Source: Candidatus Daviesbacteria bacterium (lineage in GTDB: Bacteria > Patescibacteriota > Microgenomatia > Daviesbacterales > UBA10151). From it: a DNA stretch of 64,000 bases. A program made the position numbers and the translations under genes. Positions 24,713-60,493 of the stretch are shown here, one piece after another. The notes beneath the pieces are model-generated. The model saw only the letters and a list, made by a program, of their open reading frames with translations. It made no database searches and had not been told where the DNA came from. The DNA lies in NCBI GenBank assembly GCA_028687915.1, contig JAQTZF010000001.1, positions 354,634 through 418,633 of the forward strand. Reading direction: 5' to 3'. Each line of letters begins with the position of its first letter. Positions within the stretch are counted from its first letter, which is position 1.

Positions 24713-24727
24713 TGCGGGATCGTCTAA
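24713..24727 (+). repeat. 15-nt exact direct repeat of the 5' end of tRNA-Gln (TGCGGGATCGTCTAA), 93 bp upstream of the gene
   Basis: Identical to 24806-24820. Followed by the perfect hairpin CGAAAC-tat-GTTTCG (24736-24750). Confidence 0.6.
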
Positions 24728-24805
24728 AGATAAGCCGAAACTATGTTTCGTCTTGCGAAAGCTTTGCTTTCTTAAGCAAGCTTGCCATTAGTCGATCTAA
24801 TATAA

Positions 24806-24876
24806 TGCGGGATCGTCTAATGGTAGGACGACAGCCTCTGAAGTTGTCTATCTTGGTCCGAATCCAAGTCCCGCAG
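24806..24876 (+). tRNA. tRNA-Gln (anticodon CUG)
   Basis: Manual fold: acceptor TGCGGGA/TCCCGCA, 3-bp D stem GTC/GAC with loop TAATGGTAG, anticodon stem ACAGC/GTTGT, loop CTCTGAA (U33, CUG, A37), T arm CTTGG-TCCGAAT-CCAAG, discriminator G. Closely parallels E. coli tRNA-Gln. CCA is not encoded. Confidence 0.8.
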
Positions 24877-24898
24877 CAGAGTTAATCAAAATTAGAAC

Positions 24899-57460: not shown

Positions 57461-59956
57461 TTAGTAAATATCGTCCTTTTTTATTCTTGTTTTCATAATT
57501 AACTCAAAAATTTCTATGAGAGTTATTGAAATTAGGGATGAAATAATTGCAATTAATATTCCGTTGGTATTAAGCTCGGAAAATAAAAATAAATTTCTTA
57601 GTCCTGGAATTAAAATCGTCGCTAATAAAAGAGTGATAGTTCCTAGTGTAATAAGCTTTATGGATTTGGTAGCGCTAATAAAACTATGTAAGATATTTTT
57701 TGGTCCGTTAATGTTAGCAAACATAGCTCCAATATTTGATAAGATTAAACAGACAAAAGTTATAGTTCTAGTGGCACTATCTGTAAATCCAAGGTACCTG
57801 GTAAAGAAGATTACTCCCAGACAAATAGATAGAATTATTCCTCCCTGTATTATTGAATAATATAATGTTTTATTATCAAGAAAGGGTAGATTAAGTCTTC
57901 TTGGGTGTTTTAACATTGTATCTTTATCTGCTTCTGTTGTTTCAAAAGCTATAGCAGAAGAGGGGTCTATAAATAATTCCAGGAAAACTATGTGTAAGGG
58001 AAATAATATTAATGGTAAATGAAACAAGGGAGGGATTAAGGCAATTCCGGCAATTGGTACATGAATGGCTAGTGTATACATTACAGCTCTTTTAATATTG
58101 GTATAAATCCTTCTGCCAAGTGAAATAGCTTCAACTAAGGAAGAAAAATCTCCATTTAATAAAACTAGTGAGGCTGATTCTTTAGCTACATCAGTACTTC
58201 TTTGTCCCAGGGCAATTCCAATATGGGAAGCAGCTAGTGCTGGAGCATCATTTATACCATCTCCGGTCATAGCAACAATTTCACCATTAGCTTTTAAAGC
58301 ATTAACTATACGTAGTTTTTCCTCCGGGATAATTCTGGCAAATATACAGCTTGTAGCAACAACTTTTTGTAGCTCTGTATCAGACATCTTTGAAACTTCT
58401 TGACCGGTTACAACATCCTGTATATTCTCCAGCCCAATTTTATGTGCCACAAACTTTGCAGTTTCCGGATAATCTCCGGTTACCATTATTACCTTAATTC
58501 CAGCCTTGTGACAAACTTGTATAGCAGCTGGAACAGTTGGTCTTACCGGGTCAACCAAGCCAATAAGACCTAAAAATTTGTAATTAATTTCGTTTTGGGT
58601 TTTTGGTAAACTTGTACCTTCTGCTTTAGCAACAGCCAGAACTTTTAGACCTGTTGATGCCATCTCAGAGACCTGGAATATAAACTTTCTTTCATCTGTC
58701 TTTGATAATTTACATAATTTAATAATAGTTTCCGGTGCGCCTTTGGCAGAAAAAATATAATTTTTTGAGCCTTCTAGTTGCCAGACATTTGTTATAGCCA
58801 TAATTTCTTTAGAGAATGTATATTCTTTGATTAGTTCTTTATTTTCTATAATCTTTATATCCTGGTTTTTTGCTTTTTCTAGGATTGCAATTTCTACTGG
58901 ATCAAAAGTATTTTTGCGGGAAGCAGAAACTGCATATTCAAGAAGTTCTTGTTCTGAAGTATTCTCTTGATGAAAGAGTTCTGCAACAGACATCTTATTA
59001 AAAGTAACAGTGCCTGTTTTATCAACACAAAGTACAGTTGTTGCTCCCAGAGTCTCTATGGCTGGAATATCTTTAGTTAAAACTCCTTTTTTTGAAATTC
59101 TCCAGGCTCCAAGTGCTAAAAATACTGTCATAATTACTACGAATTCTTCTGGTAAGATAGATAAACTTAAAGTAATACCTGCAAGAAATCCTTCCATCCA
59201 ATTGTTTCTAATAACACCATAAATAATTACTACGACTAAACACAAAATTCCTCCTAATAAGGCTAATTTATAAATAAACTTGTTTGTTTCTTCTTGTAAG
59301 TGAGATTTTGTGCGCTTAATTTGAGATAAGGCTTTGCCTATTTTTCCAATTTCACTCTTAGGTCCTGTAAATATCACTTTGGCATAACAATGTCCTGTGG
59401 TGATAAGTGTTCCACTATATAAAAAAGGCAGATTTGGGCCACCAGGTCTTCTAATTGGGGTGATACTATTCCATACTGTCTTTGAAACAGCCAAAGATTC
59501 ACCGGTTAAAATAGATTCATCAACAGTCAAATTATTTGCATCTAATATTGCTGCATCTGCCGGAATCCTTTCACCTTCTGATAAAACTAAAATATCTTCC
59601 GGAACAATTTCTCTAGCTGGAATTGTCTTAATAATGCCTTCCCGGATTACCTTTGCCATTGGTTCTGATAACTCCTTTAAAGCAGCTAGTGCTTTTTCTG
59701 TTTTTTGGTTTTGATAAAAAGAAATAGCAACAATAATACAAATACTTCCAGATAAAGCTAAGGCTTCTTTAAAATCACCAAGAAAAAAGTATAAGGCAAC
59801 AGAAATAATTAACAGTATAAACATGGGTTCCTTTAAGGTGGAAATAAGGATAGAAAAAAACCCTTTCTTTTTATCCTGAGGTAAAGAGTTAAACCCTTCT
59901 ATCTCTAGCTTTTTTGCAGCCTCAGCTTCTGTTAAACCAATAAATTTTTCACTCAT
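57461..59956 (-). CDS. P-type cation-transporting ATPase (type II, Ca2+/Mg2+-like)
   Basis: 'DKTGTVT', '[19 protein letters not shown]', 10 TM segments, 831 aa. Confidence 0.85.
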   Translation of the reverse strand: MSEKFIGLTEAEAAKKLEIEGFNSLPQDKKKGFFSILISTLKEPMFILLIISVALYFFLGDFKEALALSGSICIIVAISFYQNQKTEKALAALKELSEPMAKVIREGIIKTIPAREIVPEDILVLSEGERIPADAAILDANNLTVDESILTGESLAVSKTVWNSITPIRRPGGPNLPFLYSGTLITTGHCYAKVIFTGPKSEIGKIGKALSQIKRTKSHLQEETNKFIYKLALLGGILCLVVVIIYGVIRNNWMEGFLAGITLSLSILPEEFVVIMTVFLALGAWRISKKGVLTKDIPAIETLGATTVLCVDKTGTVTFNKMSVAELFHQENTSEQELLEYAVSASRKNTFDPVEIAILEKAKNQDIKIIENKELIKEYTFSKEIMAITNVWQLEGSKNYIFSAKGAPETIIKLCKLSKTDERKFIFQVSEMASTGLKVLAVAKAEGTSLPKTQNEINYKFLGLIGLVDPVRPTVPAAIQVCHKAGIKVIMVTGDYPETAKFVAHKIGLENIQDVVTGQEVSKMSDTELQKVVATSCIFARIIPEEKLRIVNALKANGEIVAMTGDGINDAPALAASHIGIALGQRSTDVAKESASLVLLNGDFSSLVEAISLGRRIYTNIKRAVMYTLAIHVPIAGIALIPPLFHLPLILFPLHIVFLELFIDPSSAIAFETTEADKDTMLKHPRRLNLPFLDNKTLYYSIIQGGIILSICLGVIFFTRYLGFTDSATRTITFVCLILSNIGAMFANINGPKNILHSFISATKSIKLITLGTITLLLATILIPGLRNLFLFSELNTNGILIAIISSLISITLIEIFELIMKTRIKKDDIY

Positions 59957-60077
59957 AAAGATATATACTTTTATTAGTGTAACATGGCTGATTTAAAGAG
60001 GGTAAGAAGCTTGTTTCTGTAGTGTACCCCAAGAGCATTCACTACTTCATAGTAGCGCGCCCTAAAGGCACTCACCA

Positions 60078-60190
60078 CTACGTTGGTAGCGCGTACGGGA
60101 GTAGGGCTACCTCCCGACGTACGTCGGGACGATCCTGTCCCGATTAGAATCGGGATTGAACCTGCTTAGCTCTGCGAGATGCGCATGCTT
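60078..60190 (-). ncRNA. Structured tRNA-like remnant. Its 3' end ACUCCCGUACGCGCUA-CCA duplicates the 3' end of tRNA-Glu and encodes CCA. It is preceded by three consecutive perfect hairpins (UCCCGAUU-cua-AAUCGGGA; GGGAC-aggauc-GUCCC; the self-complementary CCCGACGUACGUCGGG).
   Basis: Read on the minus strand. I could not fold it into a canonical cloverleaf (no 5' acceptor partner, 9-nt T-loop). Confidence 0.3.
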
Positions 60191-60206
60191 CTTGCCCAAA
60201 TACGGC

Positions 60207-60246
60207 AAAAAACAAAAAATCCCCCACAGGGGGTATTTTGTTTTTG
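60207..60246. terminator. Bidirectional rho-independent terminator: A-run, CCCCC-aca-GGGGG, U-run
   Basis: Symmetric, and flanked by T-runs on both strands. Lies directly 3' of tRNA-Glu (minus). Confidence 0.6.
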
Positions 60247-60320
60247 TAGCGCGTACGGGAGTTGAACCCGTGATTTTCGGAATGAGAATCCGACGTCCTG
60301 GACCACTAGACGAACGCGCC
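60247..60320 (-). tRNA. tRNA-Glu (anticodon CUC)
   Basis: Manual fold: acceptor GGCGCGU/ACGCGCU, D arm GUCU-AGUGGUCCA-GGAC (Glu-type, cf. E. coli UCGUCUAGAGGCCCAGGACA), anticodon arm UCGGA-UUCUCAU-UCCGA, T arm ACGGG-UUCAACU-CCCGU, discriminator A. Followed by CA, not CCA. Confidence 0.8.
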
Positions 60321-60332
60321 ATATTTCTGATT

Positions 60333-60426
60333 TGCGTTCATCTGCGAGTGCAAAAGCCCTCTAATGACGAACACATTCTATGTATATGCGTTCATCTGCG
60401 AGTGCAAAAGCCCTCTAATGACGAAC
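60333..60426. repeat. Two copies of a 40-nt hairpin-forming unit (TGCGTTCATCTGCGAGTGCAAAAGCCCTCTAATGACGAAC) with a 54-bp period, immediately 5' of tRNA-Glu on its strand
   Basis: Exact duplicate at 60333-60372 and 60387-60426. On the minus strand each unit starts with G(C/U)GUUCGUC; the promoter-proximal copy, extended by 2 nt, reads GCGCGUUCGUC, identical to tRNA-Glu positions 2-12. Closing stem GCGUUC/GAACGC. Confidence 0.6.
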
Positions 60427-60493
60427 GCGCTGAGCAAGTGAATTTTATCAAAAAAGTATCCTTAAAGCTACATTTTTATATAAAATATCTGTA

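Follow-up and report, generated by a model that had tools for sequence, protein, structure and literature searches.

An earlier note on a 64,000-nucleotide (nt) stretch of Candidatus Daviesbacteria DNA (contig JAQTZF010000001.1; the window throughout) singled out a transfer RNA (tRNA) gene for glutamate that is flanked by fragments of itself, and we analyzed this locus together with its relatives. Every feature of the locus is carried by the minus strand. At its center is an intact tRNA-Glu(CUC) gene (60246/7-60320) with a G1-U72 pair, which is called by ARAGORN and matches Rfam RF00005 over its full length (63.8 bits, model positions 1-71). Like a canonical bacterial tRNA, it has a full cloverleaf, a covariance-model match and an anticodon. 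CCA is not encoded by the gene, whose 3' end reads GCGCTAC followed by AAAAAC. The gene is followed by a terminator-like hairpin (60208-60245) with a CCCCC-loop-GGGGG core, A/T-rich arms and flanking T runs on both strands; it scores as a terminator on either strand. Upstream, a TTGATAAAATTC stretch is present in five of the collected related loci (L001, L009, L152, L154 and L157), and the extended -10-like element TGATAAAAT (60442-60450, minus strand) is the candidate promoter of the tRNA-Glu unit; a simple promoter scan made no call at this element. The locus has a G+C content of 52-59%, compared to about 33% in its surroundings. Positions 59940-60299 are matched at 100% in the Logan assembly of run SRR22315507, and a second contig of that run matches 60397-60450. 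The identity in an independent assembly indicates that the block described below is not an artefact of genome binning.

Beyond the terminator lies a block (about 60000-60245) in which pieces of the tRNA gene recur. An exact 17-nt repeat of the tRNA 3' end, ACTCCCGTACGCGCTAC, is found at 60086-60102 and 60246-60262; it reaches 20 nt with one mismatch, the two copies are 160 nt apart from start to start, and 0.01 matches per window are expected by chance. The downstream copy runs on into CCA (60084-60086). We mapped all tRNA-Glu matches of at least 7 nt in the flanks of the gene and used 300 shuffles as the null: the flanks hold 9 such matches, compared to a shuffle mean of 2.5 and a maximum of 7. 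In order past the terminator, they are GGTTCAA (tRNA nt 53-59), the 17-nt 3' end (nt 59-75), TAGTGGT (nt 13-19) and CGCGCTAC (nt 68-75). The first two belong to a pseudo-tRNA with the layout GCAGG-TTCAA[53 nt]ACT-CCCGT-ACGCGCT-A-CCA, that is, a T arm, an acceptor 3' strand and CCA. Its degenerate T-stem 5' strand and the start of its T loop are provided by GCAGGTTCAA (60156-60165, minus strand), which contains GGTTCAA and is separated from the 3'-end copy by 53 nt.

The insert that splits this T loop is made largely of hairpins. Directly after GGTTCAA comes hairpin A, TCCCGATTCTAATCGGGA (60138-60155), then 8 nt, then hairpin B, the perfect 18-nt palindrome TCCCGACGTACGTCGGGA (60112-60129, from a perfect-hairpin scan), then GGTAGCCCT. 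Hairpins A and B, which can be read on either strand, both have the form TCCCGA-N6-TCGGGA. A third perfect GC-rich hairpin (60124-60143) overlaps the two, and together they make up three of the seven perfect GC-rich hairpins in the 64 kb. By base composition, TCCCGACGTACGTCGGGA is expected 4e-8 times per window. The T-loop end GGTAGCCCT is followed by the tRNA 3' fragment ACTCCCGTACGCGCTA and CCA (together 60084-60111, minus strand), which supply the T-stem 3' strand, acceptor 3' strand and discriminator of the pseudo-tRNA; GGTAGC in this segment is able to pair with GCTACC of the downstream fragment. A second, more decayed tRNA-Glu copy follows (60052-60083, minus strand). It consists of ACGTAGTGGTGAG with the D-loop string TAGTGGT (60074-60080) and GGGCGCGCTAC with the acceptor end CGCGCTAC (60052-60059). 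None of the fragments contains an anticodon arm.

In single-sequence folds the block is closed by a 14-nt imperfect inverted repeat (60000-60013, either strand, with its partner at 60184-60197). This repeat is probably fortuitous, since it is not conserved in the related loci L154 and L150 and several equal 14-nt pairs nearby look like chance. As for features of a miniature inverted-repeat transposable element, the inverted repeat is unconserved, a possible TACCC duplication is too short to judge, and there is no second copy within the window. Compared to shuffled sequence, the block folds with z-scores of -6.3 and -5.2, which are accounted for by the perfect palindromes. Two functions for the block were considered and rejected. 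A structured RNA gene of the 6S, SRP, Y-RNA-like, transfer-messenger RNA (tmRNA) or ribozyme kind is suggested by the G+C island, the closing stem and the z-scores, but no Rfam family matches the block at E<=10 and the closing stem is unconserved. A riboswitch or leader of the P-type ATPase gene on the far side of the block also finds no Rfam match at this threshold, and the block is absent at the ATPase orthologs in L001, L147, L149, L151 and L152.

Two short repeats within the locus deserve mention. The right arm of the palindrome, ACGTCGG (60114-60120), is identical to tRNA nt 25-31 (60290-60296) at the junction of the D stem and anticodon stem, which prompts the idea that the hairpin family arose from a tRNA arm; we dropped this reading, as a 7-nt match is not significant. 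The 8-mer CTCGCAGA (60171-60178, 60341-60348 and 60395-60402, minus strand) is common to the downstream block and the two leader units described next. It could be taken as the junction of a nested arrangement, with the real tRNA inside a complete pseudo-tRNA-Glu, formed by splicing a leader unit to the block at the 8-mer, in which GAGGGC-TTTT-GCACTC would replace the anticodon arm. This candidate was also discarded: a repeated 8-mer is expected by chance in about 500 nt, and it is not kept in L154.

Upstream of the tRNA gene lie two exact units of 39-43 nt (60330-60372 and 60384-60426), with no further copy in the window. The promoter-proximal unit (60388-60430 with its extensions, minus strand) begins with GCGCGTTCGTC, a copy of tRNA nt 2-12 (60420-60430), followed by the inner hairpin GAGGGC-TTTT-GCACTC (60400-60415) and the arm GATGAACGC (60388-60396), which is complementary to the 5' copy. 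The second unit (60334-60374, minus strand) is an exact tandem copy with a period of 54 nt; it has the 5' arm GTGTTCGTC, in which GTTCGTC (60366-60372) equals tRNA nt 6-12, its inner hairpin spans 60346-60361 and its 3' arm 60334-60342. In L001, L152 and L154/L153 the unit is present as a single copy, and the window alone has two. Across the window, L001, L152 and L154, the inner stem varies with compensation (GAGGGC/GCACTC, GAGAGC/GCTCTC, GAGTAT/ATACTC and GAGC/GCTC). Changes in the outer stem are one-sided and preserve pairing, as in GATGAACG to GACGGACG. Two relatives that lack the unit, L009 and L157, have the promoter-like box TGATAAAAT only 8-12 nt from the tRNA, indicating that the leader unit is positioned between promoter and gene.

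Much of the anatomy given in the earlier note thus holds. ARAGORN, Rfam and the repeat search confirm a tRNA-Glu(CUC) without CCA and a second 17-nt 3' end with CCA past the terminator, the terminator does score on both strands, and the leader carries two exact units of about 40 nt, the promoter-proximal one with tRNA nt 2-12. Some details needed correction. The length of 17 nt for the copy is right, and the string written out for it had 16 letters; the copy is also longer than was noted, with the T-stem 5' strand GCAGGTTCAA and the further fragments TAGTGGT and CGCGCTAC. Three perfect hairpins are indeed present, but they span 44 nt and not 110; a figure of about 114 nt fits the whole GC-rich stretch 60084-60197.

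The other tRNA gene of the window, tRNA-Gln(CUG) (24806-24877, plus strand), has the same leader design. A 15-nt exact copy of its 5' end, TGCGGGATCGTCTAA, lies 93 nt upstream (24713-24727), and directly 5' of the gene the arm CCATTAGTCGATCTAAT (24785-24801) is nearly complementary to that copy. A tRNA-Asn gene of Patescibacteria in L017 has a 12-nt leader copy of its own 5' end; the complementary arm was examined for tRNA-Gln and not for this gene. By comparison, about 50 other tRNAs of the collected loci have leader matches of 4-8 nt only, which is the background level. The design shared by tRNA-Gln and tRNA-Glu may point to a role of the leader at the RNA level. In the minimum-energy fold of the whole precursor (60205-60436), the acceptor 3' strand of the tRNA is taken up by the promoter-proximal 5' copy, and every antisense arm is paired with the 5' copy that follows it. 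This fold retains the anticodon and T hairpins but has neither a D stem nor a normal acceptor stem. If the RNA folded as it was transcribed, each unit would close on itself, and in these predictions only that route would lead to a functional structure. In our model, the 5' copy left over would be masked by the antisense arm, and GCTACC of the downstream fragment by GGTAGC, so that the real tRNA can fold.

To place the locus in its clade, we gathered syntenic loci through homologs of GreA and of the P-type ATPase. L001 (GreA 88% identical) and L152 (84%) each have one leader unit and no block; in L001 about 70 nt separate the tRNA from the ATPase gene, and in L152 the tRNA has an encoded CCA. 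The block is also absent from L149 (ATPase 72% identical, 80% to that of L150), whose contig begins inside the tRNA so that the leader is not visible, and from the more distant L009, L157 and L002, which have no leader unit. L154/L153 (GreA 86%) have one leader unit, followed past the tRNA by the terminator and the start of the block, where the contig ends. L150, from the same sample as L154, opens with the remainder of the block, and its leader is not covered. Accordingly, the block is absent from three of the four relatives that keep the tRNA-ATPase junction (L001, L149 and L152) and present in one (L154 plus L150). The terminator has a homologue 3' of the tRNA in L154/L153 and none in L001, L149 or L152.

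The second lineage with the block is informative. L150 begins with TTTTGAC-GAA-GTCAAAA at the position of hairpin B, with three compensated pairs, followed by GGTAGCCCTAATCCCGCACGCGCTAC. In L154 an AT-rich hairpin stands in place of hairpin A; paired manually, it would preserve the stem as 6 bp with one bulged G. In the hairpins of L154/L150, CCC/GGG is swapped for TTT/AAA. AAGCAGGTTCAAT is unchanged in L154 despite diverged flanks, and the second decayed copy is not present in L150. At two positions the 3' fragment matches the tRNA of its own genome, with CCCGT/ACT in the window and CCCGC/AAT in L150/L154. By GreA identity the window, L001 and L154 are roughly equidistant, and L149, which lacks the block, is the closest ATPase relative of L150. 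On these sequence comparisons, the downstream block is gained or lost on short time scales and the leader unit is older and more stable.

Several other changes were seen in this neighborhood. L155 (1060-1340) and L156 (428-710), with GreA 83% identical, have only an AT-rich spacer and no tRNA-Glu upstream of greA. The gene after greA in L152 and L157 encodes a class II tRNA synthetase (tRNA-synt_2) with anticodon-binding domains, and in the window a class I lysyl-tRNA synthetase. The neighborhood is often rearranged in the clade. Just 5' of the P-type ATPase start, AATCAGCCATGTTACACTAATAA (59971-59993, minus strand) is kept in L001, L147/L148, L149, L150 and L152, although the spacer around it is not. 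It ends 0-3 nt ahead of the ATPase ATG in several relatives, a position that may mark the promoter of a leaderless or near-leaderless ATPase mRNA.

We next consider hairpin B outside the clade. A scan of metagenomes selected on the exact 18-nt TCCCGACGTACGTCGGGA found it, among the matches listed, at at least 126 sites on more than 115 contigs; 37 of the 126 listed sites are in contigs below 50% G+C, and BLAST extension of the listed sites from the window stops at about 28 nt. Some of the same contigs were flagged by a screen for tRNA-end copies near tRNA genes. In at least nine contigs, among them L027, L038, L065, L089, L101, L122, L143 and L144, the palindrome stands in for the anticodon arm or the T loop of a disabled tRNA copy that adjoins an intact tRNA. 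The intact neighbors of such pseudo-tRNAs are tRNA-Val, tRNA-Ala and tRNA-Asn, and in L143 the repeat unit lies beside tRNA-Thr genes. In L122, after an intact tRNA-Val comes GCTCAGTTGGTTAGAGCG[palindrome]AGGTCAGTGGTTCAAATCCACTGTCGCCCACCA, in which the 18-mer exactly replaces the 17-nt anticodon arm. In L027, two or more tandem copies come after tRNA-Ala and its terminator; their anticodon arm is replaced in the same way, and they have extra GC hairpins in the T loop and acceptor strand. Hairpins with the arms of hairpin A occupy the same T-loop position in L038 and in Bacteroidota arrays (L158-L163). In the viral contig L197, TCCCGATCTTAATCGGGA takes the place of the anticodon arm in pseudo-tRNA-Pro units that adjoin an intact tRNA-Pro and a GIY-YIG gene; TCCCGATCTTAATCGGGA differs from hairpin A at two loop positions. 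A partial copy thus lies beside an intact tRNA of the same identity for Glu (window), Val (L122), Ala (L027), Asn (L065, L038 and L158-L163) and Pro (L197). When viral contigs were scanned for GGTTC or GAGCG combined with the hairpin consensus, the matches were about as many as we estimate for chance, and all were coding-sequence noise except L197; viral scans for the palindrome or the 16-nt tRNA 3' end gave only GC-rich chance sites and phage tRNA-Glu genes.

L027 has further peculiarities. At about 150-420 its intact tRNA-Ala(CGC) appears nested in an outer interrupted tRNA-Ala that has a G3-U70 acceptor and, within its T loop, the 20-nt palindrome CCTGCCTGCCGGCAGGCAGG as an interruption. 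The inner tRNA-Ala lies between complementary leader and trailer strands, tctgctattgcct and aggcaatagcaga, and in the neighboring pseudo-copy the hairpin CCTGCCTGCCGGTAGGCAGG, near-identical to CCTGCCTGCCGGCAGGCAGG, is nested inside the 18-nt palindrome. The palindrome also tops terminator-like hairpins (for example aaaaccg[pal]cggttttt) in L044, L084, L117 and L120; L048/L050/L095/L118/L129 and L057/L086/L112/L123 carry it as well. It is further found within several distinct repeat families, in contigs of 36-65% G+C with no obvious tRNA context. Insertion at hairpin tips as a general rule was rejected, as 97 of the 126 listed sites have no flanking pair. Either the palindrome is spread more widely than the pseudo-tRNAs or part of these sites arose by chance; many of the GC-rich matches may be chance or belong to other repeat families. 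A tRNA profile applied to the palindrome flanks with nhmmer lacked the sensitivity needed for counting pseudo-tRNAs.

The pseudo-tRNAs are associated with a small nuclease gene. In five of the contigs listed, an open reading frame (ORF) of about 95 codons with a GIY-YIG domain (PF01541, E 1e-12 to 1e-19) ends no more than 22 nt from the palindrome. All eight strong nuclease matches in the 0.9 Mb of collected loci adjoin the palindrome, at a distance of up to 22 nt in seven cases and of 217 nt in one; L105 has a ninth, weak match 1,053 nt from it. In a search independent of the palindrome, the homologs of one cassette nuclease proved to be Bacteroidota proteins, one of which occurs on more than 60 contigs. 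At these Bacteroidota loci an intact tRNA-Asn and a terminator precede a tandem array with a period of 417 nt and at least four units, each consisting of the nuclease gene, then the pseudo-tRNA-Asn GGTTAGAGCGG[TCCCGATGTACATCGGGA]TTAATCCGTAGGTCGTAGGTTCA[TCCCGATGCACATCGGGA]GAGGAGC and then a terminator. The hairpin TCCCGATGCACATCGGGA follows GGTTCA, which is the place of hairpin A in the window. In L065 (234-563) and L038 (653-985) the GIY-YIG frame crosses the D-arm remnant and the hairpin (...GRASPDVRRD, then stop) and ends at a TAA of the former anticodon loop, and the frames of L101, L144 and L089 end within the D-arm region, at a TAG. The 3' end of the nuclease gene therefore overlaps the pseudo-tRNA. 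Searches with the cassette nucleases by tblastn found distant GIY-YIG genes in plasmids only and none in phages.

From these loci we define a cassette class, located next to tRNA genes of many uncultivated bacteria, that comprises redundant tRNA copies in which the anticodon arm and/or T loop is replaced by one hairpin family; full-length members also have the GIY-YIG gene of about 95 codons and form tandem arrays. The window has a partial copy beside an intact tRNA and TCCCGA-N6-TCGGGA hairpins that split the T loop. We think it somewhat more probable than the alternatives combined (roughly 55%) that the locus is one functional tRNA-Glu(CUC) among decayed partial copies of itself, an ORF-less vestige of this class and not a new RNA gene. 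The reading rests on the anatomy of the locus, the presence and absence of the block among relatives, the shared hairpins and the GIY-YIG association elsewhere. In the proposed mechanism, a GIY-YIG endonuclease would break tRNA genes internally, and recombinational repair of the breaks would give segmental duplications, as we suggest for the window locus. One copy would stay functional and the surplus copies would be the hairpin-substituted, disabled ones; once the nuclease gene was lost, the copies would decay into blocks like that of the window. The present contribution of the block is then probably limited to the terminator that now stands between the tRNA and the P-type ATPase gene. Masking of the leftover 5' copy, a possible competitor for the acceptor 3' strand, may be the reason why the leader hairpins persist.

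The duplicated 3' end invites comparison with an integrase attachment (att) scar, one of the explanations offered in the earlier note, in which a tyrosine-recombinase element in the tRNA-Glu 3' end duplicated a core of 17-20 nt and was later mostly deleted to leave a remnant of about 160 bp. Direct repeats of the tRNA 3' end do bound a 143-bp segment, the block is variably present among relatives, and the distal copy retains CCA and a following A, which resembles the CCAA encoded by the L152 tRNA and would be expected of a displaced original 3' end. But the 143 bp hold a terminator and hairpins, with no integrase, integrase remnant or other ORF, and the distal repeat is followed by a decayed tRNA copy and not by the ancestral flank, as represented by the spacer downstream of the tRNA in L001. 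Moreover, the distal copy reaches back to the T-stem 5' strand and has a hairpin-split T loop, which makes it a pseudo-tRNA and not an att core; the second decayed copy and the upstream 5' copies, which elements integrating at the 3' end do not make, are unexplained; and the hairpins link the block to GIY-YIG cassettes and not to an integrase. What survives of this idea is a DNA-level rearrangement tied to a selfish element, with a block that comes and goes among relatives; an att duplication as such is improbable. The locus could also reflect nothing but local replication errors, with slippage and template switching at a structured tRNA gene giving direct and inverted partial duplications, and with GC-rich palindromes arising independently of any nuclease or mobile element. 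The leader has the layout copy, inverted copy, copy that would result from template-switch inverted triplications, its units are an exact tandem duplication, and no nuclease gene is present in the 64-kb window. Such errors do not explain why an 18-nt palindrome as rare as TCCCGACGTACGTCGGGA (4e-8 expected) recurs exactly in unrelated contigs, in the same pseudo-tRNA context and beside GIY-YIG genes, or why the second hairpin has the arms and T-loop position of the cassettes, and we regard this account as rather unlikely.

Function at the RNA level was also suggested earlier, and here leader and block differ. The leader could be an RNA switch or a pre-tRNA processing signal, and the block could be a small RNA (a plus-strand transcript that ends at the terminator and has a 19-nt perfect antisense match to the 3' end of mature tRNA-Glu, CCA included) or a non-decoding tRNA mimic or decoy. 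In favor of this, the block folds far better than shuffles; compensatory changes preserve hairpin B and the leader inner stem, and probably also hairpin A if it is paired manually; at two positions the fragment varies together with the local tRNA; and the terminator is predicted in both directions. The leader design is repeated at tRNA-Gln, and its antisense arms compete with the real tRNA 5' end in the minimum-energy precursor fold. However, the block is missing from three of the four relatives that keep the junction, lies past the tRNA terminator on the minus strand, has no convincing plus-strand promoter in the promoter scan and matches no Rfam family. The perfect palindromes alone explain its z-scores, and intrastrand correction can preserve palindrome symmetry without selection. 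In addition, the hairpin-bearing copies elsewhere are multi-copy tandem arrays with a nuclease gene, as is typical of selfish DNA. Functional tRNA-derived RNAs are therefore unlikely as an account of the whole locus; a regulatory role is possible for the leader only, whose hairpin is conserved with compensatory changes, and is unlikely for the block. The remaining suggestion, a split, permuted or two-piece tRNA or tmRNA with halves transcribed apart and then assembled, is barely credible. It draws on the CCA-bearing 3' half and on GGCGCGC 30 nt further on, which offers a possible permuted acceptor pairing. Against this, ARAGORN with permuted tmRNA detection and Rfam at E<=10 found nothing in the region beyond the intact tRNA-Glu (the calls of ARAGORN in the window are the two tRNA genes), the pieces include neither an anticodon arm nor a tag reading frame, the acceptor pairs would be G1-U72, G2-C71 and C3-G70 and not include G3-U70, manual assembly of the pieces fails to give a cloverleaf, the putative 5' half is absent from L150, and an intact tRNA-Glu(CUC) is already there.

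Several observations weigh against a nuclease-cassette vestige. A profile built from five cassette nucleases has no match among the six-frame ORFs of the 64-kb window, which indicates that the element there is at most a non-autonomous or vestigial member of the class, like L122, L027 and L143; its link to the nuclease cassettes would run through shared hairpins and architecture, with no nuclease gene at the locus. The cutting of tRNA genes by nucleases of about 95 residues is postulated by analogy with SegB, a larger phage protein. In the arrays an intact tRNA adjoins the nuclease gene, so a simple model in which the hairpin confers immunity on the target is incomplete. For the palindrome, the candidate roles range from immunity plug to recognition site to RNA handle. 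The pairing of hairpins A and B is kept in the second lineage despite six changed base pairs, and this could reflect selection on RNA or single-stranded DNA structure and not decay. Likewise, a 3' fragment that tracks the tRNA of its own genome at two positions needs gene conversion, repeated events or function. The kept pairing, the tracking fragment and the intact tRNA beside the nuclease gene go beyond simple decay and call for gene conversion, self-correction of palindromes or function. Finally, nothing in the nuclease arrays corresponds to the leader unit, whose origin may be separate.

A wider proposition, which we hold only tentatively and consider doubtful, is that TCCCGA-N6-TCGGGA marks an undescribed family of cassettes that parasitize tRNA genes across phyla (the candidate phyla radiation, Bacteroidota, others and at least one viral contig). 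The nuclease of about 95 residues would duplicate tRNA segments, the palindrome would be an essential cis element, as a recognition or immunity site of the nuclease, the Daviesbacteria locus would be non-autonomous, and the leader and trailer hairpins would be selected for masking leftover tRNA ends. In the boldest form, the palindrome may serve as a handle for protein binding on a guide-like RNA that is derived from a tRNA and has flanks matching the targeted tRNA gene. A literature search of incomplete coverage, which included the palindrome string, returned no description of the palindrome, the arrays or hairpin-substituted pseudo-tRNA cassettes. For annotation, the locus indicates that GC-rich, strongly folding islands by tRNA genes in AT-rich genomes of candidate phyla can be decayed tRNA copies, and that z-scores of -5 to -6 are insufficient for calling an RNA gene. 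The tRNA genes of uncultivated bacteria appear to be targeted by a small GIY-YIG cassette that leaves hairpin-substituted pseudo-tRNA debris, and the masked 5'-copy leader at both tRNA genes of the window suggests a constraint on pre-tRNA folding.

Among known systems, permuted and split tRNA genes (Cyanidioschyzon, Nanoarchaeum) and two-piece tmRNA resemble the locus in having a CCA-bearing tRNA 3' half apart from 5'-end sequences. They differ from it in that the window has no full cloverleaf from the pieces, no bulge-helix-bulge or other processing signal, an intact gene and negative results from the detectors. Tyrosine-recombinase islands in tRNA genes share the direct repeat of the tRNA 3' end, the functional tRNA that is kept since the incoming DNA brings a replacement end, and a block that is variable among relatives. 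By contrast, the window has no integrase, and it has a longer hairpin-split pseudo-tRNA, upstream 5' copies, several decayed copies and the GIY-YIG association. Rickettsia palindromic elements, REP/BIME, Correia elements and the GC clusters of yeast mitochondria are short palindromic repeats that insert into genes, including RNA genes. Like them, the hairpins here are GC-rich palindromes in an AT-rich genome that are nested in other sequences, with a hairpin within a hairpin in L027. Unlike them, the unit is only 18 bp, is exact across contigs of 36-75% G+C and replaces tRNA arms, and no mobilizing enzyme is known.

The closest parallel is SegB, a free-standing homing endonuclease of the GIY-YIG type, encoded among the clustered tRNA genes of T-even phages, that cuts inside tRNA genes with the preferred motif RAWTSGAAC and whose breaks lead to recombination-dependent tandem amplification of the segB-tRNA segment (PMC13096335). 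The reverse complement of this motif would correspond to the T-loop sequence GTTCSAWTY, a correspondence drawn here and not in that paper. The cassettes differ from SegB in that they lie on bacterial chromosomes (candidate phyla radiation, Bacteroidota), their nuclease has only about 95 residues and its action on tRNA genes is putative, argued by analogy; a conserved palindromic hairpin systematically disables the surplus copies, a feature unreported for SegB, and the window has no nuclease gene. They share with SegB the GIY-YIG domain and a gene that lies beside tRNA genes, and the metagenomic arrays and the partial tandem copies of the window resemble fixed products of such an amplification. 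These likenesses would place the window feature within endonuclease-associated rearrangement of tRNA loci. If confirmed, the link between SegB-type homing endonucleases and the amplification of tRNA loci would extend from phages to bacterial chromosomes, and a conserved 18-bp palindrome would be defined as well.

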